From the NCBI GenBank assembly GCA_049860595.1, contig CP187551.1: a stretch of DNA of 64,000 nucleotides; one strand, given 5' to 3'. Below are positions 1-59,858 of this stretch, one piece after another. Made by a program: the position numbers and the translations under genes. The notes under the pieces are model-generated. The model was not told where the DNA came from. It was given only the letters and a program-made list of their open reading frames with translations, and searched no databases. Positions within the stretch are counted from its first letter, which is position 1, and each line of letters starts with the position of its first letter. Source of the stretch: Methanocaldococcus sp. 16A (GTDB lineage: Archaea > AGJL01 > Methanococci > Methanococcales > Methanocaldococcaceae).

Positions 1-1089
1 AAAGATGCCTTATCAAGAAGTGACACAACTAAATACTTAAAAGATGAATTTGGTGAAGCAAGAATAGTAGTAGTTGGATGTGGTGGAGCAGGAAATAACA
101 CAATTAACAGACTAATGGAAATTGGTATTCAAGGAGCAGAAACAATAGCTATAAACACAGATAAACAACATTTAGAAATAATACAAGCAGATAAGAAAAT
201 TTTAATTGGGGCTACATTAACAAGAGGTTTAGGTGCTGGGGGTTATCCAGAGATTGGGAGAAAGGCAGCTGAAATGGCTAAAAATATATTGGAAGAGCAG
301 TTAAAAGGAGCTGATTTAGTTTTTGTCACTGCAGGAATGGGAGGAGGAACAGGAACAGGTTCAGCTCCAGTTGTAGCTGAAGTAGCTAAAGAAAACGGAG
401 CTATAGTTGTTGGAGTTGTAACATACCCATTTAAAATTGAGAGAGCTAGAATGAAAAAGGCTGATGAAGGAATTGCAAGAATGTCTGAGGTTTGTGATAC
501 TGTAATTATCATAGATAATAATAAGCTTTTGGATTTAGTTCCAAACTTGCCTATAAATGATGCATTTAAAGTGGCTGATGAAATTATAGCTCAAGCAGTT
601 AAAGGGATAACCGAAACCATAGCCGTTCCAAGCTTAATAAATATTGACTTTGCAGATGTTAAGGCAGTTATGAGCGGTGGAGGAGTAGCAATGATTGGAG
701 TTGGTGAAGTAGATAATAGTGATAGAGGAGATAGGGTTCAAAATATAGTTAGAGAAACTTTAAACTGTCCATTATTGGATGTTGATTATAAAGGTGCTAA
801 AGGGGCTTTAATTCATATAACTGGAGGTCCTGATTTGACATTAAAGGAAGCTAATGACATTGGAGAAGGGATAACAAACCAACTCGACCCAGAGGCAAAC
901 GTTATATGGGGAGCAAGGATAGACCCCGATATGGAAGGATGTATTAGAGTTATGGCAATAATTACTGGAGTTAAGTCACCAAATATTGTAGGAAAAGATT
1001 CAAAACCAAGAAGAATAATACCAAAAGTTTCAAAAGAGCAAAATCAGAGAAGAGAACAAAGAAAATGTAACATTGACTTTATAGTATAA
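1..1089 (+). CDS. ftsZ: Cell division GTPase FtsZ (FtsZ2-type), 5'-truncated by window edge
   Basis: Frame is open from base 1 (KDALSRSD...[17 protein letters not shown]); tubulin signature GGGTGTG; NIDFADV. Confidence 0.97.
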
Positions 1090-41388: not shown

Positions 41389-44300
41389 AGTTTTTCCTCA
41401 ATCATTCCCTCAATTTCTAAGTATTTCTTTCTTAACTTTTCTTTTGTTTCTTCATCTGCTTTCCACATTCCTCTTTCAATAGCCTCTAACAACACCTCAG
41501 TTATATTTAATAAGGCGTAAGGATTATTTTCTTTAAAGAATTTTTCCATATCTTTATCAAAAACATACTTCTCAGCAATTTTTTGATACATCCAATCATC
41601 TATTATGTTTGAGGTTGCATCCCATTGGAACATATGCTCAATATACTTTGAGAAATCACTTGCCCCTTTATATCCATGCTTCTTCATTCCTTCAATCCAC
41701 TTTGGATTCATTATTTTTGTTCTAAATATTTGCTTTCCTTCTTCTTTTAAATGTTTTGTTTTTATTTTATATGGATTTGATGTATCTCCAATATAGCTCT
41801 TTGGTTGCTTGCCAGAATAATAAGTTACTGCTGCAATCATTCCACCATGATAGCTGTTGAAGTCATCTCCCTCAAAAATATCCCATTCTTGGCTATCTTC
41901 ATTTTTAACAGTTACTTCAATCTTTGAGAGCCTATTAATAAATTCCTCCTTTGCATCAACACCATAAATACCTTTTCCATAAGCATAACCTCCCCACTCA
42001 ACATAAACCTTTGCCAAATCTTCCAAAGATTTCCAGTTCTTCTCAGTCAATAAATCAGCAACTCCAGCTCCATAACATCCTGGCTTGCATCCAAATATTC
42101 TATATAACGATGTTTCTCTTGCTGTTTTCTCATCCATACCCTTCTTTAATTTTTCTTCAACCTCCTGTTTATAGTGTTTTTTTACATAATTCATTTCATC
42201 TGGCTCATCCAAATTTGCAACAGTTCTTATTGCCTCATCGATTAAATCAACAACCTGTGGGAAAGTATCTCTAAACAAGCCACTAATCCTTAAAGTTACA
42301 TCAATTCTCGGCCTTCCTAATTCTTCCAATGGAATAACCTCAAAGCCAACAATTCTTCCCATCTTATTCCAAACTGGCTTAACTCCTAATAAGTATAGTA
42401 TTTCTCCAATATCATCTCCCTTAGTTCTCATTGTAGGAGAGCCCCAAACTACAATTCCTAAATACTCAGGATATTTACCCTCTTCCTCCAAATACTTATT
42501 TAATAAATCCTCAGCCAATCTCTTTCCCATCTCATAGGCAGATTTCGTTGGAATCTCCTGAGGATTGCAAGAATAGAAGTTTCTTCCTGTAGGAAGACAG
42601 TTTATATCCTTTGTTGGAGCCCCTGCTAATCTTGGAGGGATATATTTTCCTTCTAAAGCATTTACTGCATTTTCAATCTCTTCATTTACTCTCATTAAAT
42701 TTTTATATATTTTTGAAACGGTTTTTAAAATCACCATTAATTCAGAATTAATTTTTATGGTTTTTAACTCATTAATTTTGTTCTCATCAAAGTTGTATTC
42801 CATATACTCCTCCAATAAATTTAATCCAATTTCATTTATCTTATCAATAATTTTATGATTTTTTCCTTTCTCCTCATTTAGTTTATCCCAATCATATCCC
42901 AAAATCTCTGCCAATTTTTCTAAATAATTGAACTGGTATCTAATAATCATAAAGAGCATATTAACTAATTTATCCCCTTCTAATGGAACTCCCATTATAT
43001 GCAATCCTTCATTTATTTGCCTATTTTTTAACTCCTCTAAGTAATCGTGAATTTTATTTAAAAGATTTTCAAAATTCTCCTCATTAATATTCTCATTTGT
43101 AACTTTTCCATCCATTAAATCTTCATCCAACTTCAATTCTTTAATTTTATTTATAATATTTTTCTTTAAAAAGTTCTTCTTTTCTTTATTATCTGCTTCA
43201 TAATATTCATCTATTTCTCTTTCTAACTCAGCTAACTCCCCATACAAATCAGATGTTGTCATTGGAGGAATTAAGTGGCTTATTATTGTTGCATAACTCC
43301 TCCTCTTTGCCTGTGTTCCTTCTCCTGGATTATTTACAATAAATGGATATACATTAGGAAGTCCCATACAAATATCAGGATAACAATCTCTTGATAAACC
43401 TGCTCCCTTTCCAGGAAGCCATTCTAAACTTCCATGTTTCCCTATATGCATTACTGCATCTGCTTTAAAAACATCCTTAATCCATTTGTAAAAGGCAATA
43501 TAATAGTGTGTTGGTGGCATATCTGGAGAATGATAAATTGCAGAAGGATTCTCTCCAAAGCCCCTTGGTGGTTGAACAGAAATGAAGATATTTCCATTTA
43601 TTATTCCTGGGATTATTAATTCTCCATTAAAATTCATAACTTCTCCAGGAATTGCTCCCCAATTTTTGATTAATTCATTTTTTACTTTCTCAGATAATGA
43701 GTTGAACCATTTTTTATAATCTTCTTTCTTAACTTTTCCTACAGCCTTTTTTATAACATCTTCTGTCAAAAATCTCTTATCATTTGTTGCATAGTTTAGC
43801 ATTTTTTTGATTAATTCAGTTCCATTTTCATAGAGTTCATCAACAACAAAACCCCTCTTTTTTAATTCTTTTAATATATTTAAAACACTTTCTGGGCTAT
43901 CTAATCCAAAAGCACTTGCAATTTTATCATTTCTTGGTGGATAGTTGTGGAAAATTATTGCTATCCTTTTTTCATCGTTTGGCTTTAACTTTAAATTTGC
44001 ATATCTTATAGCTAAATTAACAATCTTCTCAGCTCTATCTTTTATTGATTTGTATTTTATAATTGGAACTCCAACATCTCCATCTTTAATCTTTTTCTTT
44101 CCTCCTATTGGGAAATGTATTATTGTCCCATCGAATTCAGGCATAGCCATTCCAATAACTAAGTCGATTGGATTTATTCCAGATATTGACTTCTCCCAAT
44201 CTTCAATAAATCCTGTACTTACAATTCCCTGCAAAATTGGCACATTTAATTTTTTTAAAAATTCTGGTTCATCCATTAAGATATCTGCCTTTACTCCCAT

Positions 44301-45074
44301 AGATAGTGTAAACATGGTTGTGTTTATTAAAACATGGATGAATGGCTTTCCATCTTTATAGAAGAATTTTTTAAACACACCTAATGTTCCAATAGCCCCT
44401 AATTCATTTTTTAAATGAGATGTAAAGACGGCAACAGGTATTGCTCCCTTATCTTCAATAATTTCAATTAAATCGTTGAGATAATCGATATTGTTTGCAA
44501 TAAACCAATTTCTATAAAATAGAACACCAATTATCGGTTTGCCATTTATATCTTTTCCAATTTCTTTTAAATAATTTAAATAATCCTCTAAAGTTTCAAA
44601 GTATTTGTTTTTGTAATAAATTCCCTGCCATGGCATTGGCTTTGGTTCTTCATAGGGGATGTTTTTATCTCCAAATGTATTTGCTAAATATAATAATAGA
44701 TTTTTGTAATTTTCAACTCCTTCATAGCCCAAATATTTGATAACCTTTAACTTAACTTCCTCGCTCACTGTCGTTGCTTCATCCAAGTCAGGATGAACCT
44801 CATTTAGCGTAGGAAGAGGTAGGAAGGGAATGTTATGTTTATCAACAAATGCTTTTAATTCATCAAAATATCTAAACGCACTTTTACCACCCATGAGTTT
44901 TGTAAATACAATGTTAGCATCTTTAATAAATTCTAAGAACTCTTTAAACTCTTCCTCGCTACATTTATAGTCTAATATTTTAAATTCAATTCCATATTTT
45001 TTTACGTCCTTGTATGCCTCTTCAAAAACTAAATCATCACTATCAACAGTTGAAACAAACCCTATCTTTATCAT
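41385..45074 (-). CDS. cobN: Cobaltochelatase subunit CobN (class I chelatase large subunit)
   Basis: MPEFDG, QPPRG, HIGKHGSLEWLPGK, NNPGEG.QAKRR, LPTGRNFY, LGRPRIDV, NPKWIEGM. Confidence 0.93.
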   Translation of the reverse strand: MIKIGFVSTVDSDDLVFEEAYKDVKKYGIEFKILDYKCSEEEFKEFLEFIKDANIVFTKLMGGKSAFRYFDELKAFVDKHNIPFLPLPTLNEVHPDLDEATTVSEEVKLKVIKYLGYEGVENYKNLLLYLANTFGDKNIPYEEPKPMPWQGIYYKNKYFETLEDYLNYLKEIGKDINGKPIIGVLFYRNWFIANNIDYLNDLIEIIEDKGAIPVAVFTSHLKNELGAIGTLGVFKKFFYKDGKPFIHVLINTTMFTLSMGVKADILMDEPEFLKKLNVPILQGIVSTGFIEDWEKSISGINPIDLVIGMAMPEFDGTIIHFPIGGKKKIKDGDVGVPIIKYKSIKDRAEKIVNLAIRYANLKLKPNDEKRIAIIFHNYPPRNDKIASAFGLDSPESVLNILKELKKRGFVVDELYENGTELIKKMLNYATNDKRFLTEDVIKKAVGKVKKEDYKKWFNSLSEKVKNELIKNWGAIPGEVMNFNGELIIPGIINGNIFISVQPPRGFGENPSAIYHSPDMPPTHYYIAFYKWIKDVFKADAVMHIGKHGSLEWLPGKGAGLSRDCYPDICMGLPNVYPFIVNNPGEGTQAKRRSYATIISHLIPPMTTSDLYGELAELEREIDEYYEADNKEKKNFLKKNIINKIKELKLDEDLMDGKVTNENINEENFENLLNKIHDYLEELKNRQINEGLHIMGVPLEGDKLVNMLFMIIRYQFNYLEKLAEILGYDWDKLNEEKGKNHKIIDKINEIGLNLLEEYMEYNFDENKINELKTIKINSELMVILKTVSKIYKNLMRVNEEIENAVNALEGKYIPPRLAGAPTKDINCLPTGRNFYSCNPQEIPTKSAYEMGKRLAEDLLNKYLEEEGKYPEYLGIVVWGSPTMRTKGDDIGEILYLLGVKPVWNKMGRIVGFEVIPLEELGRPRIDVTLRISGLFRDTFPQVVDLIDEAIRTVANLDEPDEMNYVKKHYKQEVEEKLKKGMDEKTARETSLYRIFGCKPGCYGAGVADLLTEKNWKSLEDLAKVYVEWGGYAYGKGIYGVDAKEEFINRLSKIEVTVKNEDSQEWDIFEGDDFNSYHGGMIAAVTYYSGKQPKSYIGDTSNPYKIKTKHLKEEGKQIFRTKIMNPKWIEGMKKHGYKGASDFSKYIEHMFQWDATSNIIDDWMYQKIAEKYVFDKDMEKFFKENNPYALLNITEVLLEAIERGMWKADEETKEKLRKKYLEIEGMIEEKL

Positions 45075-45190
45075 AATTTTCACCATTCAGATTAAGTTAA
45101 ATAATTATTAAGTAATTTTGATAAATTATATATTAACGTATGTTAAAAATTTTTTGGAATATAGTAAAATAATTTTAAATAGGTGAAAAT

Positions 45191-45622
45191 ATGGAAAAGA
45201 AGAAAGAACTTTTAAAGAAAATCAGAGAGTTTATGATTTTAAATTTAGAGATTAAAAAACTATCAAAAGAGTTAGGAATTAATGAAATACATGACACTTA
45301 TGAAGATGTTACAAAACTTGTTAGAGAACCAAATAAAAGATTATATAAAATGCTTTATGATGCGGCAATGGAAATAGAATACGAAGAGTTTGGCGGGAAG
45401 AAAAGGAAAGAAATTCCATGGTTTCCAAAGATTGACTATGAAAAATGCAAAAATTGTAAGAAATGTGTTGAATTTTGCCCTAAAGGTGTCTATGATATAG
45501 AAAATGGTAGAGTTATTGTTAAATACCCATACAATTGCATAATTAACTGCAACGCTTGCTCATATATGTGCTGTGAGAACAACGCCATAATTTTTCCAGA
45601 GAATAAAATAGAAAAATTATAA
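45191..45622 (+). CDS. Ferredoxin-domain protein with N-terminal helical extension
   Basis: CKNCKKCVEFCP and CIINCNACSYMC. Confidence 0.85.
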   Translation: MEKKKELLKKIREFMILNLEIKKLSKELGINEIHDTYEDVTKLVREPNKRLYKMLYDAAMEIEYEEFGGKKRKEIPWFPKIDYEKCKNCKKCVEFCPKGVYDIENGRVIVKYPYNCIINCNACSYMCCENNAIIFPENKIEKL

Positions 45623-45632
45623 GTGATAGATT

Positions 45633-46319
45633 ATGAAAATTGGTTATTTGAGTATTAGTGATAAAATAACAGTTATGTGTTACGGATGTAATTTTAAATG
45701 CAAAAATTGTTTTGTTAAGATGGACAGTTATAAAGAAATTTCTCCAACCAAACTATGCAAAATAATTGATAATCTATGCAGTAAAAAGAAAATAAATACT
45801 ATCCTAATCGCTGGTGGAGAGCCTACACTTCAGAAAGATTTGCCCGAATTTACAAGATTGTTAAAGAGTAAAAATAGAAAAGTGATTCTAACCACAAACG
45901 GATATTATTTAAAAAATATTGTTGATGATTTATTTGTTGATGAAATACATGTTGATTTAAAAGCTTTTAATGAAGAAAAACACAAATATTTAACTGGAAA
46001 ATCAAATAAAAATGTCCTAAAATGTATAGAATATTTAGCAAAGAAAAAACTTAATTTTGAGGTAGATACTGTTCTAATTCCAAATATTGTGGATATTGAT
46101 GAGATTGAGAAGATTGCAAAATTTTTAAGCAAATGGGATGTTAGATATAGGATTATTGGATATACTCCATTTAACAATAATCTAAATGCACGAAAACCTA
46201 CAAAGGAAGAGCTTTTAAAGGCAAAAGAAATTGCAAAAAAATATTTAAGTAATGTAACTACCTCATTAGATTTTAGACGGCATAAAAAAGTTAAAGAGAT
46301 TATAAAATTTGATAAATAA
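45633..46319 (+). CDS. Radical SAM protein (PflA/activase-like)
   Basis: CYGCNFKCKNC, GGEPTLQ, TNG, VDLKAF. Confidence 0.85.
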   Translation: MKIGYLSISDKITVMCYGCNFKCKNCFVKMDSYKEISPTKLCKIIDNLCSKKKINTILIAGGEPTLQKDLPEFTRLLKSKNRKVILTTNGYYLKNIVDDLFVDEIHVDLKAFNEEKHKYLTGKSNKNVLKCIEYLAKKKLNFEVDTVLIPNIVDIDEIEKIAKFLSKWDVRYRIIGYTPFNNNLNARKPTKEELLKAKEIAKKYLSNVTTSLDFRRHKKVKEIIKFDK

Positions 46320-46324
46320 AGTTT

Positions 46325-47470
46325 TTAATTTTTAGATAAATTTTGATAATGTTTTAATAGTTGAGCCTCTAAATCTTTAATGCTTCCATTGAATTTTATA
46401 ACTTTTTTGGCATTCTCTAAAAGTTTTAAGTTTAATTTATTCATTTCTCCTACCGGAAAGTTTGTATCTATTACAACATCACACATTTTTAAGTATTTTA
46501 ATGCCTTATTGTAATTATCTTCAGAAATTGGTTGATATGCTTTTTCTTCAATAATCTCAACTTCCATTGCTTTAGCTATTATATAATCAATATCATTCTT
46601 ATGTAAGACCCCACAATAAACCTTATATCCATTTTTAACCAAATATCTCAAAACATTAGCTCCACTCCCCCCTCCACAAACTACAAAAACTTTTTTATCA
46701 CTTGTATTTTCATTTTTTAATTCAAAATAACCAATTTCTTTGGAAAAATTTGCATTTTTTATATCATATAAATTATTGACGGTTTCTTTGTCCATAACAT
46801 CCTCAGGATGTCCATAGGCAATTATCTTACCATCTTTGATTAGTGCTATTTTGTCGGCAATCCTTAAGGCGAGTTCTATATCATGAATAGTTACAATTAT
46901 AGCGAGATTTTTTTCTGTTGCCAATTTTCTCAACAACAAAGTAAGTTCTATCTTGTGCCTTGCATCTAAGAAGGATGTAGGTTCATCTAAAATTAAAACC
47001 TTTGGCTCTTGTGCTAACGCCCTTGCTATCATTATCTTCTGTCTTTCCCCATCACTCATTTCAAGGAAGTTTTTTTCTAATAAGTGAAGAGCATTAACAG
47101 CTTTCGCAGAATTTATAATAATTTCCTTATCCTTCTCTGATAATCTTCCAAATAAATCTGTATAGGGATGCCTTCCTATTGCAATTATATCAAATCCTGT
47201 TAAATTTCCTGGATTTACTCTTTCTGTTAAAACTACAGCCATTTTTTTAGCAAGTTGAGAAGGTTTTAGTTTATGTATTATATTTGAATCTAAATAAACT
47301 ACTCCTTTTATAGGCTCTAGATATGTTGCTATACACTTCAATAGTGTTGATTTTCCAACACCATTAGGACCTATTATTGCCAAAATTTCTCCTTCTTTAA
47401 CTTCTAAATTTACATTATCAACGACAATTCTCTTATGATAACCAATGGCAAGATTTTCCGTTTTTAACAT
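46325..47470 (-). CDS. ABC ATPase of FecE/BtuD type with C-terminal extension
   Basis: GPNGVGKS, MSDGERQK, ILDEPT, TIHD; extra ~130-aa domain starting VVCGGGSG. Confidence 0.92.
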   Translation of the reverse strand: MLKTENLAIGYHKRIVVDNVNLEVKEGEILAIIGPNGVGKSTLLKCIATYLEPIKGVVYLDSNIIHKLKPSQLAKKMAVVLTERVNPGNLTGFDIIAIGRHPYTDLFGRLSEKDKEIIINSAKAVNALHLLEKNFLEMSDGERQKIMIARALAQEPKVLILDEPTSFLDARHKIELTLLLRKLATEKNLAIIVTIHDIELALRIADKIALIKDGKIIAYGHPEDVMDKETVNNLYDIKNANFSKEIGYFELKNENTSDKKVFVVCGGGSGANVLRYLVKNGYKVYCGVLHKNDIDYIIAKAMEVEIIEEKAYQPISEDNYNKALKYLKMCDVVIDTNFPVGEMNKLNLKLLENAKKVIKFNGSIKDLEAQLLKHYQNLSKN

Positions 47471-49579: not shown

Positions 49580-50404
49580 TCATTTAAATCTTGATAGAAT
49601 AAAGCCAAAAAGAATCCCTGCCAACACTCCAGAGAGCAAATTAAATCCTAAAAATTTAAAACTACTCTTTTTTTCCACAACTACATTAACTACCGGATGG
49701 TATTCCGTTATGTTAATTTCTTTAACAATAACTTCTGGTTCCTTTACTTTAGGGGTTATGTAAATCCTATTTACTATTGTTGATGAAGATGTTTCAACAT
49801 CTTCTACATCTTCTTTTAGTTTCATTGTTGTTGTGTTTGTTACATTTCCAATGCCTTTTATTATCACCTTTGCCCCAAAGAACTTTATGTTTGGATATTC
49901 TTTGAATGTATTTGTAGATTTGTCAAAATAACTTTCACCACTACCATACCTGTACCCCAATGCTGAACTAACAGATCCTGACAAATTTAATTGGGTTTCT
50001 CCTTCTTTAATAGGAATAAACATTATTTCTCCGATACAAAAATCTTCTTCAATGGGATTATTAAATGAAATTGATAAATTAAATGCTCCATCTTTAAATT
50101 CATAAAACTTTAACTTCTCATTTTTACATATCTCACTCCAATTAAAACCATAAGGTTTTAAATATTCAGGAGGGTAGTTTATATAAATATCCACTCCTCT
50201 ACACCCACCGTCTTCACTATTATCATGATAAAGATCTCCAATTTTTGGAAGATTTTCTATCGTTATGTTAAATTTAATAATCTCTCCATTTGAAATAACT
50301 TCCTCGGGGATTAATTTAACATAGACATCTTCTGCATAACAAATATCTAAAAAAATAGAAATAATGGAAATAAGAGTTAAAATAACTAAAAAATGTTTAT
50401 TCAT
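49580..50404 (-). CDS. Single cohesin-like membrane-anchored protein
   Basis: Signal peptide; FNITIEN...GVDIYINYPPEYL...IGEIMFIPIKEG; Thr/Ser linker; C-terminal TM. Confidence 0.62.
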   Translation of the reverse strand: MNKHFLVILTLISIISIFLDICYAEDVYVKLIPEEVISNGEIIKFNITIENLPKIGDLYHDNSEDGGCRGVDIYINYPPEYLKPYGFNWSEICKNEKLKFYEFKDGAFNLSISFNNPIEEDFCIGEIMFIPIKEGETQLNLSGSVSSALGYRYGSGESYFDKSTNTFKEYPNIKFFGAKVIIKGIGNVTNTTTMKLKEDVEDVETSSSTIVNRIYITPKVKEPEVIVKEINITEYHPVVNVVVEKKSSFKFLGFNLLSGVLAGILFGFILSRFK

Positions 50405-50949
50405 TACCCATCACCTTTTTTTATAATGTAAGCTATCAATCCAATTAAAAGAACTGCAAATATGACCATTATTGGATTAAATGAAAATGATTCATTTTTT
50501 TCTACTTTTTGAGTGGAATTAGATATTATCTTTAGATTTACTGTTTTTTGAGGGATTTTAATGGCATTTCCTTCACTGTCTGATGCCTTTGCCTTTATTG
50601 TTATCGTTGCATTTCCACATTCCAAAGCCTTTATTTTGAATTCACCAACTTTAAAATCCTCATTTTTTGGATTTGTCAAAAAAACATACTGTATTGCAGC
50701 ACTTCTATTTTTGTTTATTGTTAAGTTGTAATCTGCTCCAACATCATAGCTAATTACATTATCTACTACAAGGTTATTAGAGAGGTAAATATTGCATTCT
50801 AAACCTCCACAATTTGAAACATTATTTGCGTAAACTTCTACAACAAATAAATCTCCTTTTTTAACTTCAGAAGGAGCTTTTACTGAAACATCTATTGCCA
50901 TACATGTTGGAAGTATAAGAAAAATCAACAATGCAGCAAACTTTTTCAT
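50404..50949 (-). CDS. Single cohesin-like membrane-anchored protein
   Basis: Signal peptide; VKKGDLFVVEV...GGLECNI...GEFKIKALECG...ASDSEG; C-terminal TM followed by KK. Confidence 0.7.
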   Translation of the reverse strand: MKKFAALLIFLILPTCMAIDVSVKAPSEVKKGDLFVVEVYANNVSNCGGLECNIYLSNNLVVDNVISYDVGADYNLTINKNRSAAIQYVFLTNPKNEDFKVGEFKIKALECGNATITIKAKASDSEGNAIKIPQKTVNLKIISNSTQKVEKNESFSFNPIMVIFAVLLIGLIAYIIKKGDG

Positions 50950-50990
50950 GCTCTCACCAAAGTAAAGATTACTTTATTAATAGTAAAAAT

Positions 50991-51030
50991 TACCGTAAAA
51001 TATATATACCTACCGTAAAATATATATACC
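50991..51030. repeat. Perfect 20-bp tandem duplication containing a TATA-like element in a divergent promoter
   Basis: TACCGTAAAATATATATACC twice. Confidence 0.92.
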
Positions 51031-51129
51031 TATTGTTAATATCATAATCTTTGTTTTTGTTAAAGATTTTTTTAATAAAATTAACTATTTATTTATAATA
51101 ACAATCTAATATAAATATTAAATGGTGGT

Positions 51130-52485
51130 ATGATGCCGAAAAATATTAATATCATTGGGTATATATTACTTACCGTTTTCTTACTATTAGTGCCAGTATA
51201 TGCAGAAGGTGATTACAACTATAGATTGGGTGATGTCAACAAAGATGGTTCCATTGATATTGCAGATGTGGTTTATCTTTTCAAACACAGAGACCTTGAT
51301 ATAGAAGATGGTGATTTAAACGCAGATGGCAGCATAGACATTGCTGATGTTGTTTATCTCTTTGTTAATTATCAAAAAATGAGAGAACCTATTCATTATG
51401 CCAAAAATATAAAAATTACATATTATGATGAAAATGGAAATGAAGTAAATCCTTACAATGGAGAATCTTATGCATACAAAATAGTTGAAGACGCCACTGG
51501 GCAGAGATTACTATTAAAAAATGAAAGTCAGCCAATACCTTCATGGGCTGAAGGAAAATACGACAAGGTAATTAATGTCCCATTAAAAAGAGTTGTTGTG
51601 ATGAGTTCCACCCACATAGCTTTAATGGAACCACTAAATGACGATGGCTCAGTGATTGGCTCAGTGAAGGGAATAATGTGGGGAGGAACATACAAGTGGT
51701 ACTTTGATGATATTAAAGAAGGGCTTAATAATGGTTCAATAATTGACGTTGGTTCTTCATACAGTCCAAATTATGACTTAATTATTAACATCTCCCCACA
51801 GGTTGTGTTTGTCTATCCAGGATACAGCGGAGATGCGATAATTGCAAAATGTAAGGAATTGAACATAACTTACGTTGCTGATGCAGAATACTTAGAAGAT
51901 TCTTACCTTGCAAGATGTGAATGGGTAAAGATGTTTGCAGCGTTTTACAATAAAGAAGATGTGGCAAGCAAATACTTCACAAGAATAGAAAAGAGGGCAT
52001 TGAATGTGAAAAGATTAACAAGAAATACAAATAGACCATTAGTGGCTTGGGGTAAGAACTATCCAAAATATGGTGGAACATACGTTCCAAAAGCACAGTC
52101 CTATGTTGCTAAGGCAATCATAGATGATTGCCATGGAGATTATATATTTAAAGACATTCCAGGGACTGGCAGTGCATGCATAGATTACGAGACATTTGCA
52201 GAGAGGGCAAAAGATGCAGACATCTGGGTAGTTCCATCAAGCACAACATGGTTATCAACCTTTAAAGATGACCATCCAGGATATGAAAACTTTAAAGCTG
52301 TGCAGAATGGAAGATTGTTCTGTATAAGTGATGATTACTGGCAACTTGGATTAATGAATACTGATGAGGTATTGATGGATTTAGCAACAATATTACATCC
52401 AGATGTATTCAAAGGAAGAACTACTCACTACTTCCTAAAATATAATCCTAATACTAATACAGCCGAGCCATATACCGCAGAATAA
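51130..52485 (+). CDS. Dockerin-fused ABC substrate-binding protein (BtuF/FepB class III), #1
   Basis: Signal peptide ending VYA; duplicated Ca-loop GDVNKDGSIDIADVVYL / GDLNADGSIDIADVVYL; SBP motifs PLKRVVVMS, ARCEWVK, DLATILHP. Confidence 0.9.
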   Translation: MMPKNINIIGYILLTVFLLLVPVYAEGDYNYRLGDVNKDGSIDIADVVYLFKHRDLDIEDGDLNADGSIDIADVVYLFVNYQKMREPIHYAKNIKITYYDENGNEVNPYNGESYAYKIVEDATGQRLLLKNESQPIPSWAEGKYDKVINVPLKRVVVMSSTHIALMEPLNDDGSVIGSVKGIMWGGTYKWYFDDIKEGLNNGSIIDVGSSYSPNYDLIINISPQVVFVYPGYSGDAIIAKCKELNITYVADAEYLEDSYLARCEWVKMFAAFYNKEDVASKYFTRIEKRALNVKRLTRNTNRPLVAWGKNYPKYGGTYVPKAQSYVAKAIIDDCHGDYIFKDIPGTGSACIDYETFAERAKDADIWVVPSSTTWLSTFKDDHPGYENFKAVQNGRLFCISDDYWQLGLMNTDEVLMDLATILHPDVFKGRTTHYFLKYNPNTNTAEPYTAE

Positions 52486-52536
52486 ATAAAAATTACTTTT
52501 CTTCTTTTAAAAATAAATTTTTGAAGGTGACTGTTG

Positions 52537-55500
52537 ATGAAATGGAAGGTGCTTATACTGTCAATTTTAATGGCATCACTAATAGGAGTTTATGGTGAAA
52601 ACGTAACAGTAGAGTTGGTTCCATCAGATGTTATGGGATATGTTGGGGATACTATTAACTTAGATTTAGTTGTAAAAAATGTAGGTGCTGAGGGATGTGA
52701 GGGCTTTGATACATATATTTATTTTAATTCAAGTATTTTGAATATATCTGAAAACAATATTACCTTAAAAGATGTAAGTGGGAGTATATCTAAAGAGGAT
52801 ATATCAATATCCAATGGAAAAATTTGGATTTCGTTATGGTTTAGTAAAAGTTTTACAGGGAATTTTACAATTGCCACACTATCATTTAAGGCAATAAATG
52901 AAGGTCAAGGAACAATATCATTGTATGGAACTGTTTTATCTGATTCAAATGGATTCCACATTGAGCCATTAATTTTAAAAAACTCAAATGTAAAAGTATT
53001 ATATAAACCAATTGCTGACTTGTTAGTTCCTGAAATTATAAATGCTGAATTTGGAGATAATGTAACTGTTCCAATAACTGTAGCTCCAAAGGTAAATGAA
53101 ACTGTGAATGTAATAAAAGGATATTTATCGTACGATAAAAATATGTTAAAACCAGTAAATGTATCTTCAAATGTTGGAAATGTTTTCTTCAATAGTTCAA
53201 GTGATTACTTTGAAATATCAAATATAAATCAATCAACAAACTTCACAATTAACATCACCTACAATGTAATAAATGTTGGAAATACCACAGTAAAATTGGA
53301 TAATGTCTATATGGAAGATATCAATGGAAGTTATGTAAAGGATATTTCATCAAATGCAACCACAATAGTAATCCCAGGACCTGATTTAGTAGCAGAGATA
53401 ATACCAGTATCACTCAAAGCATATACAAACAATACAATACCTATATTGGTAAAGAATATTGGGGAGAGGAATGTAACAGGTAACTTCTCAGTTAAGTTAT
53501 TGGTAGATACAAATGAGATAGGAACCTATACAATTAATGGATTGAATGTTGGAGAAACTAAGGAGGTAAACTTCACATTCATGCCTACAGAAGAGAAGAA
53601 TTACACACTTTGTGTTTTAGTTGATTGCAACAATGACGTAAAGGAAATTGATGAGAACAACAACAAATACGTTGATGAATTGTATGCTACAGAGGAGCCA
53701 ATAAGTGTAAATCTTATATCATCAACGAACTTAACAAAAACTGAAGAAACCTTTGAAGTTAGCATCACATTAAATAATATAACATCCGATAGACCAGCAA
53801 AGGCAATAGAAGGAGTTTTAACTTATGATAGTGGAGTATTAGATTGTATAAACTTTACATTCCTAATCAATGCATCTGAAGAAAATGGGACCTTACTGGA
53901 GAACATAACCTATGAAAAAGGCAAGGTAATATTCAAATTAATGGATGGTATTATTAACTCCTCAACAGTTGTAGCTATTGCTAAATTTAAGGCAATAGAT
54001 GTTGGAAACTCAGATATTGGTCTATCAAATTTAGTAGTATCTGACATACATGGATATAAATTTAACAAAGTATTAACAAACAATGTAAATGTTGTTGTAC
54101 AAGGTCCAAACATCAAAATAACCGACATCAATATATCAAACCCATTAATATACAGAATTCCAACTACAATAAACATTACAATAACAAACAATGGACATCA
54201 AGAAGCAAAACCATTTGATATTGTATTATACGCTGATGCCAATGAGATTGGAAAAGTAACAGTTGATGGGCTGAATATTAGTCAAAGTAAGACTATAGTA
54301 TTTAATTGGACTCCAGATGATATAAAAACATTTACAATAGTAGCAGTTGTTGATCCATCCAACGCAGTTAAAGAGGAGAATGAAAGTGATAATAAGCTTG
54401 TTAAGAAAATAAATGTTATAGAAATTCCAGTTTGGGTAAATGTATATAACACAACACCTGTAATTAATGGAACCTTTAATGCTACAATAGAGGTTAATGG
54501 AATAAATGAAAGGTTATGTAGTGGATATGATGGAAAGTTGATATTCAAAAACTTAAAAATTGAAAACATAGAACTTATTGGAATAAACAACTACACAATA
54601 AATAACAGTGAGTTAATATTCAGCGGATACAACTTCACAAAGTTAGGAACATTTAAAATAGCAAATATAACATTTAGAATAATTGATGAGAACAAGAGTT
54701 ACTCAGCAATATTGAAGTGCGTAGTGTTATCGGACAAGGATGGATACAAGTTTGAGAAGGTATTTATCAACAACACAATATTGGATGAGAGCTTACAAAA
54801 GGTCTTTGAAGGATTGTGTATTGAATCAGATGTGCTTGATAAAGTGGATATTGATAATGTGAAATTAGAATCTGTTGGAGATATTAACATAACAGTATTG
54901 CCTGTTAAAATTGGAGATATTGTAGATGAATTAACAATACCAAAAGTTAGTGAAAATATAACAATAAATATTACAGATGATGTTATTATAAAAATAAATT
55001 CAATATTGAACGATGCAAAAACATTAGAAGAAATTACCAAATCAGTAGATGATGAAGTAGAGTTAAATAAAACGTTGGATATGATATTAGAAAATATAGA
55101 ACCACTACTATGCGAAGGATTTAACATAACAAACAAAACTAAAGAAGAACCAAAGGAAATTGGTAATAAATTAATATCAACAATAAAATTCAAGGCAGAG
55201 AACTCATCCAACAAAGGATTTGTAATCGTTAGAATTCCAGTTGGTGAATTAAAAGTTGAGAATATTGTTGTAAATAACGGAACAGCGAATATTACCTTAA
55301 AAGAAAACGATGCTAACAGTAATGTAGGTTGGTATAAATATGTAGGTAATGGAGTTATTGAAGTTATCTTAATAAAAGACCCAGAAGTAAGTATTACTCT
55401 TACTAAAACATTACCTGTAATTCAAACAACTACAACAGCTTATTACTACAGTGGTGGAGGAAGCCATCATACAGCAATAGAACTCTACTCAGATGTTGCA

Positions 55501-55917
55501 CAAGATATTAAATCAACAAAAATAAAAGAATTTGTCCATAAAGCAAAATTAATCATAGGTTCAAAAATTGACATGAACTTATCAGCAAAATGCCTTAAAA
55601 ACGAATCAGAGTTAATAAATAATGCACTAGAGATAAAAGAGGATTGCATTTTAATTGGAGGACCCGTAGCGAACCCACTAACTAAGAAATATATGTGGAC
55701 ATTCCCAGTAAAAGTAACTAACGACTATCCAGGAAAACACAAAGGAGTTATAGAAAAACAAATAATAAATGGACACACAGTAATACTATTAGCAGGTTCA
55801 GATAGATGGGGTACAAAGGCAGCTGTAGAATACTTCAAGCAGTTAGATGATATTCCAGATGAACCAATATTTGTAGAGTGGAAAGATGGAAAAGCTATTA
55901 AAATAGAAAAACCTTAA
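52537..55917 (+). CDS. Scaffoldin-like surface protein: ~4 cohesin-like modules, 2 CARDB, C-terminal S-layer domain
   Basis: Cohesin-like GFDTYIYFNSSIL...ATLSFKA, KGYLSYDKNML, EGVLTYDSGVL...AKFKAI, GYDGKL...ANITFRI; CARDB GPDL...VDCNNDVKEIDENNN and VDPSNAVKEENESDN; S-layer-type IGGPVAN and AGSDRWGT. Confidence 0.8.
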   Translation: MKWKVLILSILMASLIGVYGENVTVELVPSDVMGYVGDTINLDLVVKNVGAEGCEGFDTYIYFNSSILNISENNITLKDVSGSISKEDISISNGKIWISLWFSKSFTGNFTIATLSFKAINEGQGTISLYGTVLSDSNGFHIEPLILKNSNVKVLYKPIADLLVPEIINAEFGDNVTVPITVAPKVNETVNVIKGYLSYDKNMLKPVNVSSNVGNVFFNSSSDYFEISNINQSTNFTINITYNVINVGNTTVKLDNVYMEDINGSYVKDISSNATTIVIPGPDLVAEIIPVSLKAYTNNTIPILVKNIGERNVTGNFSVKLLVDTNEIGTYTINGLNVGETKEVNFTFMPTEEKNYTLCVLVDCNNDVKEIDENNNKYVDELYATEEPISVNLISSTNLTKTEETFEVSITLNNITSDRPAKAIEGVLTYDSGVLDCINFTFLINASEENGTLLENITYEKGKVIFKLMDGIINSSTVVAIAKFKAIDVGNSDIGLSNLVVSDIHGYKFNKVLTNNVNVVVQGPNIKITDINISNPLIYRIPTTINITITNNGHQEAKPFDIVLYADANEIGKVTVDGLNISQSKTIVFNWTPDDIKTFTIVAVVDPSNAVKEENESDNKLVKKINVIEIPVWVNVYNTTPVINGTFNATIEVNGINERLCSGYDGKLIFKNLKIENIELIGINNYTINNSELIFSGYNFTKLGTFKIANITFRIIDENKSYSAILKCVVLSDKDGYKFEKVFINNTILDESLQKVFEGLCIESDVLDKVDIDNVKLESVGDINITVLPVKIGDIVDELTIPKVSENITINITDDVIIKINSILNDAKTLEEITKSVDDEVELNKTLDMILENIEPLLCEGFNITNKTKEEPKEIGNKLISTIKFKAENSSNKGFVIVRIPVGELKVENIVVNNGTANITLKENDANSNVGWYKYVGNGVIEVILIKDPEVSITLTKTLPVIQTTTTAYYYSGGGSHHTAIELYSDVAQDIKSTKIKEFVHKAKLIIGSKIDMNLSAKCLKNESELINNALEIKEDCILIGGPVANPLTKKYMWTFPVKVTNDYPGKHKGVIEKQIINGHTVILLAGSDRWGTKAAVEYFKQLDDIPDEPIFVEWKDGKAIKIEKP

Positions 55918-56159: not shown

Positions 56160-57479
56160 ATGTTTAAAAAAATAGTATTAATAATGGCTATTTTATTGAC
56201 ACCATTAGCATTTGGAGAAAACGTAGGAGATGTAAATGGAGATGGTTCAATAGATATTGCTGATGTTGTATATCTCTTTAAGCATAGAGATGTCCCATTA
56301 GAAGTTGGAGATTTAAACTGTGACAATTCCGTTGACATTGCAGATGTTGTATATCTATTCGTCAACTACCAAAAATGGAGAGAACCTGTAGTGTTTGCTA
56401 AAAACTTTGAAATAGAATACTACGATGTAAATGGAAATCCAGTAAGTTATGATGACAATTGGGCTTATAAAATTGTAACAACAAAATACGGGGACAATAT
56501 TTATAATAAGTACTGCATTGTTAGAGAAGGAGAGAATCCTCCAAGTAATCTGCCTTCAGATGTTAAAGTTATATATGCCCCAGTGAAAAAAGTTGCTACA
56601 GATAGTTCTTTCCAAGTAGCTATGCTTGAGGCTTTAAATGATGATAATGTAAGAAAATCCTTAAGAGGAGTATCTAAATACACATATACCAAAATAAAAG
56701 ATTATGGAGTTTTCCCGAACTTAAAACCTTATGTCGATAGTGGAAATATAATTCCAATAGGAAAATGGGGCGCACTTGATAAAGAGGCATTATTAAATAT
56801 AAGTCCAGACATTGTTTTCTTAACTTGGACACATGGTTATTTAACTACAGATATTGATACTGTAAAGGATTTAGGACTCAATTATCTCGTAACTGTAGAA
56901 TCAAATGAACCAGACTTTAGAGCAAAGGCAGAATGGGCAAAGGTATATGCTGCATTTTATAACTTAGATGCCAAAGGAAATGATTTCTTCCAGAAAGTTT
57001 GGAAAAAGAGAAATGAACTTATAAGAAAAACAAGAAATGCTGACTATAGACCAAAAGTAGCTATGCTCTATTGGTCACTATATTCAGGACCTTGGGTCTA
57101 CTGTGCCCAAAACTACTATGCAAAATGGGTTTTAGATGTTAAAGGAGATTACTGCTTCCTTGATATTCCAGGAACATCTTATGTAAATCTTGATAAAGAA
57201 ACAACCTTAGAGCACCTCCAAGACTGTGATGTATTCATATACATGAATTGGAACTCATTAAATGAGCCAATGGATACACTTGAAGAATTAAAAGAAAGAA
57301 GACCTGACTTAGCACCTATATTAGATCATGCAAAGAGAGTATATGTAACAAAACCAAATTATTCCTATGATGGAAATGTAAATATGGACTTGTTGATGGA
57401 AGACTTTGCAAGAATGATACATCCAGAATGCTTTGATGGTGGAGATAGCGAATTACATTACTTCAAAAAACTGAAATAA
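56160..57479 (+). CDS. Dockerin-fused ABC substrate-binding protein (class III), #2
   Basis: ATG 56160 after GGAG; signal peptide ending AFG; GDVNGDGSIDIADVVYL / GDLNCDNSVDIADVVYL; PVKKV, AKAEWAK, DFARMIHP. Confidence 0.9.
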   Translation: MFKKIVLIMAILLTPLAFGENVGDVNGDGSIDIADVVYLFKHRDVPLEVGDLNCDNSVDIADVVYLFVNYQKWREPVVFAKNFEIEYYDVNGNPVSYDDNWAYKIVTTKYGDNIYNKYCIVREGENPPSNLPSDVKVIYAPVKKVATDSSFQVAMLEALNDDNVRKSLRGVSKYTYTKIKDYGVFPNLKPYVDSGNIIPIGKWGALDKEALLNISPDIVFLTWTHGYLTTDIDTVKDLGLNYLVTVESNEPDFRAKAEWAKVYAAFYNLDAKGNDFFQKVWKKRNELIRKTRNADYRPKVAMLYWSLYSGPWVYCAQNYYAKWVLDVKGDYCFLDIPGTSYVNLDKETTLEHLQDCDVFIYMNWNSLNEPMDTLEELKERRPDLAPILDHAKRVYVTKPNYSYDGNVNMDLLMEDFARMIHPECFDGGDSELHYFKKLK

Positions 57480-57789: not shown

Positions 57790-58842
57790 GTGGTTATTTT
57801 GAAAATTAGGATTAAAGCTCTAACAGTATTTTTACTTTTAATGATATTTTCTTTGTCAATATTGAGTATAACTACTGGAACCATAAAAATAGAGCCAAAA
57901 AAATTTTATAACTATTTAATGGAAGGCACTACGGGTAATCCAATATGGGATAATGTTATTGAAAAGTGCAGACTTCCAAGAACTGTTGGAGCAATATTTG
58001 CAGGAATGGGTTTAGCAGTAGCAGGCTTGTTGATGCAAAGTTTGTTTAGGAACCCTTTAGCTGACCCTTATCTAATAGGGGTCTCGAGTGGGGCATCTTT
58101 AGGAGTAGCTCTTTATGTTTTTACATCATTACTATTTGAATTAGGAATTCCTCATTCAATATGGGGTTTTATATTAGCAGCCTATTTAGGCTCTCTGTTC
58201 TCTATGTTAGTAGTTATATCGTTAGCAAGGAAAGTTAGGCAAATTACTACACTTTTAATTGTTGGGCTCATGATTGGCTATATTTCCTCAGGTTTAATAA
58301 CTATTGTTATAACCTTTGGAGATTTCTTAGGTGTGGAGAATAGCAATTTGGCAAGTTTTATGATGTGGGGATATGGTTCTTTAAGTTCTTTGACTATGAA
58401 TAGAGCCATAATAATGGCTATACTGGTGGTTATTTGTAGCTTTATAACCTATTTTTTATCTAAGTATCTTGACGCCTATTTGCTTGGAGAAAACTACGCA
58501 AAGAGTGTTGGAGTTAATATAAAAAATTTGAGGATTGCCATAATTTTAATATCTTGTATGATTACTGCAAGTATTGTAGCATTTGCTGGACCAATAGGAT
58601 TTGTAGGAATGGTTTGTCCAATTGTTGCAAGGTTGGTATGTGGAACATCAAAACATTTCTATGTAATTCCTAATGCTATGTTAATAGGTGCAATTTTTTT
58701 AATAATAGCTGATATTCTTGTAAGACCTGGAGTAATAATTCCAACAACAAGCACAGAACTACCTTTAATGTGTCCTTTATCAATTATAGGGGCTCCAATA
58801 GCCATAATGATATATATCAAAAGAAAAAAGATGGGGATATAA
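57790..58842 (+). CDS. FecCD/BtuC-family ABC permease 1
   Basis: [39 protein letters not shown]. Confidence 0.93.
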
Positions 58843-59858
58843 TGAGAAAAATATCCGTGATTTTGCTAATGGTTTTGTTAATATTTTCTCTATTTGTTTT
58901 TGGGATATTTAAAGGAGGTAATGCAAAATCAATAACTATGGGTGATGTAAAAAATTTTTTAATTTATGGGACTACAGGAGATGAGTTTAAAGACAATATT
59001 ATATGGAATGTTAGAATTCCTCCGTTAGTCACTGCTTTAATTGTTGGAGCAGTTCTATCAGTTTCAGGATTAAAACTTCAGACACTTTTTAGAAATATTT
59101 TAGCGTCTCCATATACAACTGGAATATCCACTGGAGTTATATTAGGTGTGGCTATAACAGTATTCTTAGGTTTTTCATTCTCAAATATTATAAGAATTCC
59201 TGATTATATTGTAGGAGGTTGGATAGGTGCAGCTATAGCTTTAATAATATTATTGGCTCTTGCTTCAAAAATTAAGGATGTTACTGGAGTTTTAATTTGT
59301 AGTATATTGTTTGGATACTTCTACTATGGAATTGAGAGTTATTTAATAAGTTTTGCTGACAATGTCCAGATTCAAGAATTTTGGATGTTTTTACAGGGAA
59401 GTTTTTCAGGGACTAGATGGAATGATTTAAAATTAATGGCTATCTGCTCATTAATCTTTTTGATATTCTCATATATGCTTTCAAAGCATTTAAATGCCTT
59501 ACTCTTTGGAGAAAAATATGCAAAAAGCTTTGGTTTAAATATAAAATATGTTAGGATATTAATTTTATTACTCTCGGGATTTATTGTTGGGGCAGTAATT
59601 CCTTATGTAGGTTTAATTCCATTTGTTGGTTTGGCAGCGCCATATATTGCAAGAATTTTAATGAAAACTTCAGACCACAGATGGACAATTCCAGCAGCTA
59701 TGTTAATTGGGATGTTCATTTCACTACTGTGTTATTTGGTGTCAATAAAGATATTTGCCCCGAGAGTAGTTCCTGTAAAATCAATTTTAGATTTATTAGG
59801 TGGGGCGTTAGTAGTGTATATAATATACAAATCTGAAAAAAGATATAGAATAGATTGA
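58842..59858 (+). CDS. FecCD/BtuC-family ABC permease 2
   Basis: QTLFRNILASP, LFGEKYAKSFG, GLIPFVG; ATG overlaps upstream TAA. Confidence 0.92.
   Translation: MRKISVILLMVLLIFSLFVFGIFKGGNAKSITMGDVKNFLIYGTTGDEFKDNIIWNVRIPPLVTALIVGAVLSVSGLKLQTLFRNILASPYTTGISTGVILGVAITVFLGFSFSNIIRIPDYIVGGWIGAAIALIILLALASKIKDVTGVLICSILFGYFYYGIESYLISFADNVQIQEFWMFLQGSFSGTRWNDLKLMAICSLIFLIFSYMLSKHLNALLFGEKYAKSFGLNIKYVRILILLLSGFIVGAVIPYVGLIPFVGLAAPYIARILMKTSDHRWTIPAAMLIGMFISLLCYLVSIKIFAPRVVPVKSILDLLGGALVVYIIYKSEKRYRID

Follow-up and report, generated by a model that had tools for sequence, protein, structure and literature searches.

A candidate archaeal anchoring scaffoldin with an S-layer-type anchoring domain, encoded beside dockerin-bearing binding proteins of one ABC importer in Methanocaldococcus sp. 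16A

We analysed a stretch of 64,000 nucleotides (the window) from contig CP187551.1 of Methanocaldococcus sp. 16A (assembly GCA_049860595.1), in which a gene on the plus strand encodes a predicted secreted scaffoldin that carries four cohesin modules and has at its end, in one continuous piece, the anchoring domain of the surface layer (S-layer) protein. We propose that this gene is part of a cohesin-dockerin system that tethers the two substrate-binding proteins (SBP1 and SBP2) of a single FecBCD-type ATP-binding cassette (ABC) importer, the scaffoldin being held at the envelope in the same manner as the S-layer protein, and we give this reading a probability of about 0.65. It is a receptor-tethering reading because dockerins replace the lipid or transmembrane (TM) anchors on the binding proteins and because the only cohesins of the genome are encoded beside them.

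The open reading frame (ORF) of the scaffoldin runs from 52534 to 55917 on the plus strand, with a TTG at 52534 and an ATG at 52537. The G+C content of the window is about 30%, the genome measures 1.62 Mb, and the nearest named relatives of the proteins belong to Methanocaldococcus and Methanotorris. The gene and its modules are as follows.

52537..55917, plus strand: scaffoldin gene, 1126 amino acids from the ATG, predicted to be secreted and without a C-terminal TM helix
52537..52596, plus strand: signal peptide, a hydrophobic N-terminus (residues 1-20 of the model) with a predicted local distance difference test score (pLDDT) below 50
52600..53001, plus strand: cohesin 1 (Coh1), Pfam Cohesin 25.2 bits, above the cut-off of 24.1
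53014..53376, plus strand: cohesin 2 (Coh2), divergent, Pfam 19.2 bits (below the cut-off), aligning with Coh1 and Coh3, all-beta in the model
53386..53691, plus strand: CARDB 1, from Pfam CARDB, sequence matches to solved structures and the model
53701..54102, plus strand: cohesin 3 (Coh3), Pfam Cohesin 27.9 bits, its copy number varying among orthologues
54112..54420, plus strand: CARDB 2, on the same three kinds of evidence as CARDB 1
54430..54774, plus strand: cohesin 4 (Coh4), without a Pfam match, aligning with Coh1 and Coh3, a confident beta-sandwich in the model
54784..55410, plus strand: spacer or stalk module of beta strands, two long helices and a beta-sandwich, of no known family
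55411..55488, plus strand: disordered linker rich in T, Y, G and S, from sequence and low pLDDT
55489..55914, plus strand: C-terminal anchor domain, equivalent to the split anchoring domain of the S-layer protein but in one piece

An earlier reading made from the letters alone (hereafter the sequence-only reading) had given the order as two cohesins, CARDB, cohesin, CARDB, cohesin, a spacer of about 200 amino acids and a linker. This order proved exact, as a module-wise phmmer scan returned it (Coh1-Coh2-CARDB-Coh3-CARDB-Coh4-Spacer-Anchor), with a spacer of about 210 amino acids. Measured against Pfam gathering cut-offs of 24.1 bits for Cohesin (PF00963), 23.9 for S_layer_C (PF05124) and 22.9 for type I Dockerin (PF00404), the whole protein matched Cohesin at 39.4 bits and S_layer_C at 32.2 bits, while the CARDB domain (PF07705), for which the sequence-only reading had proposed a search, was found twice, at 122.6 bits; CARDB also matched the solved CARDB-type chains 2l0d, 2kl6 and 3idu by sequence. 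The scores listed for single modules come from cutting the protein into its modules and scanning each singly against Pfam. The four cohesins can be mutually aligned over 100-145 residues (27% identity over 117 amino acids for Coh4 against Coh1), and the profile of the scaffoldin family matched the solved cohesins 5lxv, 2vn5, 1g1k, 3ul4, 4ums and 4dh2 with E-values of 8.4e-6 to 3e-3, all of these matches falling on Coh1.

The AlphaFold2 model of the scaffoldin, built from 19 aligned relatives and numbered from the ATG, reached a mean pLDDT of 85.4. It contains six confident beta domains (residues 22-155, 160-280, 284-385, 389-522, 526-628 and 632-746), a mixed spacer at 750-958 with two long helices at 814-852, and an alpha/beta domain at 985-1126; the TTTT..YYYSGGGS linker (962-981) is the sole internal stretch with a pLDDT below 50. 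Compared in full length with PDB structures by Foldseek, the model matched generic multi-Ig chains only (axonemal, complement and alpha-2-macroglobulin), which gave no help in naming its domains. Residues 748-960 of the spacer found no Pfam family, apart from a chance-level match of 16 bits, and no usable match in the ESM Atlas. The spacer itself is modular: residues ~105-331 of a query made of Coh4 and the spacer matched other ORFs, of 1100-2300 amino acids, in several Methanococcales genomes, and the spacer also precedes anchors in other large ORFs of related genomes. Hydropathy revealed an N-terminal hydrophobic segment only, and neither a C-terminal TM helix nor a lipid-anchor signal was detected, in agreement with the earlier statement that the protein has no TM segment. 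The scaffoldin carries 52 N-X-S/T sequons, or 4.6 per 100 amino acids, when the long frames of the genome have a median of 0.30 and a 95th percentile of 1.2; this density fits a glycosylated extracellular protein.

The C-terminal domain is the part of the protein that gives the scaffoldin its presumed place on the cell. The sequence-only reading had taken it to be related to methanococcal S-layer proteins from the motifs IGGPVAN and AGSDRWGT; both are present and occupy invariant columns of the anchor alignment, and the relationship was borne out by profile, by sequence match and by fold. The PF05124 score rose to 47.8 bits when the last 167 amino acids were scanned alone, with a match that covers only profile positions ~83/95-172 of 177. 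Among PDB sequences the anchor found a single solved match, 9FSA (E 0.0013), whose title reads 'Cell wall anchoring domain of the surface layer protein of Methanococcus voltae (aa 24-75; 484-576)', and the motifs GGPxAN and AGxDRxxT are common to both. When the last 167 residues were modelled separately (pLDDT 89.5), 9FSA was again the top match, in Foldseek with an E-value of 4.8e-5 and in VIA-align, among 48,161 representatives, with a Z of 10.8, a root-mean-square deviation of 2.8 Å over 105 residues and 28% identity. The chain range of 9FSA aligned to the anchor, 31..577, takes in both halves of the crystallised construct. The runners-up were the N-terminal domains of glycoside hydrolase (GH) family GH67 and GH115 glucuronidases, with Z scores of 9.2-9.6, followed by GH84 and GH20 enzymes. 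This leaves a small margin in Z over GH67 and GH115, and the firmness of the assignment comes from sequence and profile.

The anchor fold also resembles, as an observation in its own right, the N-terminal accessory domains of GH67, GH115, GH84 and GH20 glycosidases at large (Z 5-9.6) and, more weakly, the C-terminal domains of the clostridial phage endolysins CD27L and CTP1L (Z 5.5-5.8) and a chain of Clostridioides difficile SlpA (Z 5.1).

The scaffoldin anchor and the M. voltae anchoring domain thus have the same fold and belong to the same family, but they are built differently. In the M. voltae S-layer protein the anchor is split (aa 24-75 and 484-576) by a lattice-forming centre of about 400 amino acids, whereas the scaffoldin carries it undivided at its C-terminus, after a flexible linker. 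Buhlheller et al. (2024; PMC11410804), where they treat the 9FSA domain, describe it as a previously undescribed 'dimeric anchor' that dimerises at the two-fold axis of the predicted p6 lattice, and the corresponding passage of a 2025 review (PMC12175726) repeats the point. The genome encodes an S-layer protein of its own, 567 amino acids long and 54% identical to the S-layer structural protein of M. jannaschii, in which a single PF05124 match (39-567) surrounds the PF05123 'central region' (119-476). We had considered whether the Pfam label 'outer domain' denotes an outward-facing part and rejected this; because PF05124 flanks PF05123 in the sequence, the label means the two sequence ends. 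Pfam scans of the scaffoldin gave no match to the lattice-forming PF05123, and by this measure it is not an S-layer protein in the sense of the TIGR01564 family (PF05123 plus PF05124). Its M. aeolicus orthologue is nevertheless annotated as one. A complex prediction between the S-layer protein (29-567, 24-row alignment) and the anchor (piece residues 20-167, 28-row alignment) scored 0.09 against a mark of 0.32, was run without controls and is uninformative either way.

The anchor is found in many proteins besides the scaffoldin. Compared with 1.84 billion representative proteins, the 167-residue piece found 159 matches at E<=1e-3 and 99 at E<=1e-10; in 95 of these 99 proteins, which range from 74 to 2074 amino acids, the match stops at most 12 residues from the C-terminus (it does not in P0080, P0116, P0124 and P0131). 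Genuine S-layer proteins (P0173 and P0178) were among the weaker matches and were also recovered by a search with the S-layer protein. We scanned 51 of the proteins with Pfam, all with E<=1e-18 and picked to fit a residue limit, and found as passengers NosD or beta-helix domains (20 proteins), GH12, GH16, peptidase C11, peptidase C1 (two), the peptidase M61 N-domain, PKD/Big domains and cohesins (two). Within the genome PF05124 was found in four proteins, each of which ends in it: the scaffoldin, the S-layer protein, a protein of 434 amino acids and a CARDB/PKD protein of 2074. With so many other secreted proteins terminating in this module, it has the look of a tag for surface display in general.

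The 2074-aa surface protein, encoded at G000:C1:507143-513367 (L011 244-6468), ends like the scaffoldin in a YYY-GGGG linker and the anchor. The linker and anchor of the two proteins are 77% identical and the remainder is far less alike, which suggests a recent exchange or gene conversion of this cassette.

The wide use of the module also bears on whether the scaffoldin stays on the cell at all. The absence of a TM helix and of a lipid-anchor signal, together with the description of the homologous S-layer domain as a dimerisation module, would suit a scaffoldin-SBP complex that is released as a free, hemophore- or siderophore-like capture complex and uses its C-terminal domain for dimerisation only. 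We consider this very unlikely, as a module that ends the S-layer protein and many exoenzymes is most simply a retention tag, and a freely diffusing complex would presumably lose its ligand to neighbours in the hydrothermal-vent habitat.

The presumed cargo and the importer are encoded on both sides of the scaffoldin gene.

51130..52485, plus strand: substrate-binding protein 1 (SBP1), 451 amino acids, with a signal peptide, a dockerin with two calcium-loop repeats, and Peripla_BP_2
56160..57479, plus strand: substrate-binding protein 2 (SBP2), from a likely ATG start (longest ORF from 56127), with a dockerin near-identical to that of SBP1 and a divergent Peripla_BP_2
57790..59858, plus strand: two FecCD-family permease genes, downstream of SBP2
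46325..47470, minus strand: ABC ATPase, directly after three genes for TM-anchored cohesin proteins on the same strand
50950..51129, no strand: divergent intergenic region with a perfect 2 x 20-nt tandem repeat at 50991-51030

The plus strand therefore reads SBP1, scaffoldin, SBP2 and two FecCD genes, and the minus strand the three TM-cohesin genes and then the ATPase. Each binding protein carries a dockerin of two repeats of the type GD[VL]NxDxS[IV]DIADVVYLF, which reached 27.2 bits in SBP2 and 22.5 bits, just below the PF00404 cut-off, in SBP1. The two dockerins are near-identical and the bodies of the proteins divergent, with 79.4 bits (SBP1) and 45.1 bits (SBP2) for Peripla_BP_2 (PF01497). 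The permeases matched FecCD at 241 and 224 bits and the ATPase matched ABC_tran at 104.9 bits. Searched against NCBIfam, SBP1 gave a 15-bit hint of FhuD only, and against PDB sequences it had no match at E<=1e-3. A metal chelate, for instance a siderophore, haem or corrinoid, is the probable class of ligand, which we infer from the Peripla_BP_2 and FecCD families and from the neighbouring genes for a CobN-type chelatase, a ferredoxin and a radical-SAM protein.

The first of these neighbours, a 1233-aa protein of the CobN/Mg-chelatase family (1357 bits), is encoded at window positions 41385-46319 and adjoins the importer genes; by eye its N-terminus has no signal peptide. It may be functionally linked to the imported metal chelate. 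The small 4Fe-4S ferredoxin and the radical-SAM protein are also encoded near it.

Three further putative holders of the binding proteins are transcribed divergently from the scaffoldin.

50404..50949, minus strand: 181-aa protein with a signal peptide, one cohesin-like module, a short linker (~15 residues) and a C-terminal TM helix
49580..50404, minus strand: 274-aa protein with one cohesin-like module, a stalk of ~70 amino acids and a C-terminal TM helix
47555..49564, minus strand: 669-aa protein with three cohesin-like modules, a PKD domain, a further beta region and a C-terminal TM helix

Hydropathy found N-terminal and C-terminal hydrophobic segments in each of the three, so the sequence-only reading was right that they end in TM helices and differ in length, and they hold three, one and one cohesin modules (669-, 274- and 181-aa proteins, respectively). 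The genes for the 274-aa and 181-aa proteins share one base. The three modules of the 669-aa protein scored 21.2 bits, nothing and 20.1 bits against Pfam Cohesin, all below the cut-off, and the two shorter proteins had no Pfam match. The nine modules of the four proteins are nonetheless linked by full-length pairwise alignments, with E-values made generous by a very small database and by the lack of composition correction. Coh1 and the first module of the 669-aa protein share 42% identity over 120 amino acids, the 181-aa protein is 29% identical to that first module over 119, and the 274-aa protein is 23% identical to Coh1 over 126. Three findings are firmer than these alignments: a comparison of family profiles (hhalign) aligned the 181-aa family with Coh1 of the scaffoldin family at a probability of 97.1% (E 5.6e-11, 119 columns), the profile of the scaffoldin family matched the six solved cellulosomal cohesins given above, and the source database names the Methanotorris orthologue of the 181-aa protein 'Cellulosome anchoring protein cohesin region'. 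The profile of the 181-aa family alone found no match in the PDB.

In two other genera the orthologues of the 181-aa protein (L012 7164-7736 and L014 11538-12098) end in an amphipathic-looking ..NFLSSxINAxxNFLKSILGG tail, which is not clearly a hydrophobic helix, and the membrane attachment of these two may differ.

The sequence-only reading had gone on to suppose two tiers of docking sites, one on the S-layer lattice and one at the membrane near the permease, with ligand possibly relayed across the S-layer. The membrane side of this picture stood, with three TM-anchored cohesin proteins of graded length, and a fair reading is that docking sites would lie at several heights above the membrane. 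The placement of the scaffoldin on the lattice calls for revision. As the shared domain is the split N- and C-terminal anchoring domain and is not lattice-forming, the scaffoldin is more likely to be tethered like the S-layer protein than displayed on the lattice, and nothing in our analysis speaks for a relay. An arrangement in which the scaffoldin forms an outer tier on the lattice, the TM proteins an inner one, and ligand or loaded binding protein is handed across the S-layer draws on the graded holders (181, 274 and 669 amino acids with TM helices, and 1126 with an S-layer-type domain) and on the near-identity and internal symmetry of the dockerins, which in principle could use any compatible cohesin. 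We find it quite unlikely nonetheless: what the scaffoldin shares with the S-layer protein is an anchoring domain that is neither lattice nor outward-facing, the very tight binding typical of cellulosomal cohesin-dockerin pairs speaks against shuttling, a relay of metal chelates is not obviously needed when small solutes can generally cross S-layer pores, and some genomes (G004 and G006) have the membrane tier and no detectable scaffoldin.

The genome as a whole suggests that the system is self-contained. Custom hidden Markov models (HMMs) built from the nine cohesin modules and from the two dockerins were run on all six frames of the 1.62-Mb genome; the cohesin model matched only the four proteins of the locus and the dockerin model only the two binding proteins, the next match having an E-value of 0.54. 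Because the training sequences match by construction, the telling result is the absence of other matches, and genome scans with the Pfam models agreed. To judge from these searches, the nine cohesin modules and two dockerins are the whole repertoire of the genome, and all of it lies around one ABC importer.

The arrangement is also conserved. Full-length relatives of the scaffoldin gave 34 matches in Methanocaldococcus, Methanotorris, Methanothermococcus, Methanofervidicoccus and Methanococcus, where they are named only 'CARDB/APHP domain protein'; orthologues are present in Methanococcus maripaludis. The C-terminal anchor is kept in 23 of the 24 relatives analysed (the exception is annotated as partial), and the six that we inspected in full all end in linker and anchor. 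Across the 24 the Coh3-CARDB unit occurs in one to three copies and Coh2 is optional. We then counted occurrences in 40 genomes of the order Methanococcales, the window's own included, which are kin, so that the counts overstate independence. The dockerin N-terminus occurs in 27 genomes (22 of the 30 of high quality and all five genera), mostly twice per genome and in frames of 425-475 amino acids, the 181-aa protein in 26 and the Coh4-spacer piece of the scaffoldin in 25. A match to the 181-aa protein was found in 24 of the 27 genomes with a dockerin; two more (G022 and G023) have a scaffoldin cohesin beside the dockerin gene, and G017 has neither. Among the 13 genomes lacking a dockerin, two gave a match to the 181-aa protein, both weak and both in incomplete genomes (G029, 81% complete; G030, 64% complete).

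By coordinates, the divergent 181-aa gene, a dockerin-SBP gene and the scaffoldin gene form an adjacent triad in about 20 genomes, and three loci of other genera bear this out: the first holds SBP2, three TM-cohesin genes, SBP1 and the scaffoldin; the second has the scaffoldin and SBP1 on one strand and TMcohC-TMcohB-TMcohA-SBP2-FecCD-FecCD on the other; the third, from a Methanococcus-type genome, has SBP1 followed by the scaffoldin. In G039, which belongs to another family of the order, the locus at C1:547821-555135 is closer to the window than are those of most genomes of the same genus (94% identity in the SBP N-terminus, 86% in the 181-aa protein and 75% in the scaffoldin piece), which hints at lateral transfer of the locus between genera. 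In G004, where the scaffoldin query had no match, the orthologue of the 181-aa protein (G004:C1:1261544-1262101) contains an in-frame TAA, and part of the system may be decaying there.

These observations also allow us to weigh the idea that the TM cohesins alone hold the binding proteins, the scaffoldin being an S-layer-associated adhesin or envelope protein in which the cohesin-like and CARDB modules serve as Ig-like spacers or bind partners other than dockerins. Two of its four cohesins fail the Pfam cut-off, CARDB is named after cell adhesion, the anchor tag is common to many unrelated surface proteins, and two genomes that keep the remainder of the system appear to lack the scaffoldin. 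We nevertheless regard this as unlikely. Coh1 and Coh3 are above the cut-off, and Coh1 has the 42% identity to the first cohesin of the 669-aa protein noted above; in each of the roughly 20 genomes where both genes could be placed, the scaffoldin lies directly downstream of a dockerin-SBP gene; and the Coh3-CARDB unit is tandemly amplified, as in scaffoldins that bind cargo.

Binding proteins of ABC importers need tethering in organisms without an outer membrane. The classes of surface anchoring recognised in archaea are TM, lipid and protein-protein anchoring, as set out in the account of PMC6098224. The tethering reading that we favour starts from what the analysis shows: which domains the proteins contain, that the anchor model matches the fold of 9FSA, that cohesins and dockerins are confined to this locus across the genome, and that the gene order is conserved. 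Cohesin-dockerin binding, attachment through the anchor, the position relative to the S-layer and the class of ligand are the steps that we add. The binding proteins would be secreted, with the N-terminal dockerin standing in for a lipid or TM anchor, and their dockerins would plug into the cohesins of the four holder proteins. Three of these holders would be fixed in the membrane by their C-terminal helices and would offer one, one and three cohesins on increasingly long stalks. The fourth, the scaffoldin, would present its four cohesins, spaced by CARDB modules, on a stalk of about 210 residues, a flexible linker of about 25 residues and the anchor, and would be held at the envelope by the attachment that also holds the S-layer protein, which could be a shared membrane receptor or pairing with the anchor domains of the S-layer protein. 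Receptors of two kinds would in this way be crowded close to one translocator.

Several observations weigh against this reading. It is odd that nine cohesin modules face two near-identical dockerins. Coh2, Coh4 and the cohesins of the 274-aa and 181-aa proteins fail the Pfam Cohesin cut-off, so some of them may be structural only. G004 and G006, both of the same genus as the window, have dockerin-SBPs and the 181-aa gene and gave no match to the scaffoldin query, so the scaffoldin may be dispensable. To reach the permease, a binding protein seated on the long scaffoldin far from the membrane would have to be released or be held very flexibly. The binding proteins have no solved relative at E<=1e-3, so the ligand class leans on Pfam Peripla_BP_2 and FecCD alone, and both the binding partner and the orientation of the anchoring domain in the S-layer protein are judged only from a lattice prediction and from the depositors' label.

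As a more tentative extension, one that we hold possible but doubtful, the S-layer anchoring domain would act as a portable 'envelope address tag', comparable in archaea to the bacterial SLH or CWB2, that places a multi-cohesin scaffold between membrane and S-layer. This scaffold and the three TM holders of graded height would hold the dockerin-bearing receptors in three dimensions around a single ABC translocator and concentrate scarce metal chelates there, so that proteins would stand in for a periplasm.

The TM-cohesin operon and the SBP/scaffoldin operon have the 20-nt tandem repeat at 50991-51030 between them. It resembles a promoter box of the BRE (B-recognition element)/TATA type, and seven further sites in the genome carry it with 3 mismatches. 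We considered it as an operator for a metal regulator and rejected this, since it looks more like a duplicated BRE/TATA-type element and has those 3-mismatch copies at other genomic sites; the repeat could be either a doubled promoter or an operator.

How soluble receptors and exoenzymes are retained on archaea that have neither wall nor outer membrane is a partly understood question. To it the locus offers two testable answers, in organisms that are cultivable and in part genetically tractable: a compact cohesin-dockerin system whose sole cargo would be the binding proteins of an importer, and the S-layer anchoring domain in a portable form, with which many secreted proteins end. If both are true, the anchor tag and the thermostable cohesin-dockerin pair would be useful for surface display in methanogens, and the receptor of the anchor, once found, would show how the S-layer of Methanococcales is held on the cell.

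The sharing of one envelope module between the S-layer protein and other secreted proteins has bacterial counterparts. CWB2 of the Cwp proteins of Clostridioides difficile and SLH of the BSL proteins of Bacillus anthracis are attachment modules shared in this way, and SLH is treated as a shared anchoring motif in the pertinent section of PMC12175726. The fold and the ligand of SLH and CWB2 are unrelated to those of the scaffoldin anchor. As Methanococcales have no wall polymer, the receptor of the anchor must differ from a bacterial wall ligand.

The closest functional likeness is to the anchoring scaffoldins of bacterial cellulosomes, of which SdbA, OlpB, Orf2p and OlpA of Clostridium/Acetivibrio thermocellum are examples. 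These are likewise secreted and consist of several cohesins, a linker and a non-covalent envelope module common to the S-layer protein, and their cargo carries a duplicated calcium-binding dockerin, as do the binding proteins here. The Pfam matches of the scaffoldin include no SLH domain, its place being taken by the archaeal anchor of PF05124/9FSA type, and the resemblance is to our mind one of function and not of membership. Unlike in cellulosomes, the presumed cargo consists of two binding proteins of an ABC importer and not of glycoside hydrolases or a primary scaffoldin, CARDB modules are interspersed among the cohesins, the dockerin is N-terminal, and nine cohesins and two dockerins are encoded in one locus.

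Systems of a related kind are known from anaerobic methanotrophic (ANME) archaea. Where Chadwick et al. (2022; PMC9012536) deal with these modules, they report from genome annotation dockerins on periplasmic-type binding proteins of ABC importers (NikA/OppA and TroA), scaffoldin-like proteins with up to five cohesins, and a link to S-layer domains; according to the same passages, earlier surveys had found no multi-cohesin scaffoldins in archaea. Dockerin-tagged binding proteins and multi-cohesin proteins are thus, as far as that account goes, of a kind already known. Our literature search returned no account of this system in Methanococcales, nor of a scaffoldin tagged with the S-layer anchoring domain, although an earlier survey of non-cellulosomal cohesins and dockerins, which the search did not cover, may list Methanococcales modules. 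The ANME and Methanococcales systems, so far as the former are described there, are both archaeal, non-cellulolytic and known from sequence alone. They differ in that the scaffoldin-like proteins of ANME archaea carry a dockerin, that their S-layer-domain proteins carry dockerins and not cohesins, and that the S-layer domain types are not the same; the system described here, unlike theirs as reported, is built around a single conserved operon pair with FecB/FecCD-type parts and occurs in cultivated Methanococcales. What appears to be new, then, is an archaeal anchoring scaffoldin that bears the S-layer protein's own anchoring domain and would serve a single FecBCD-type importer in cultivable organisms.

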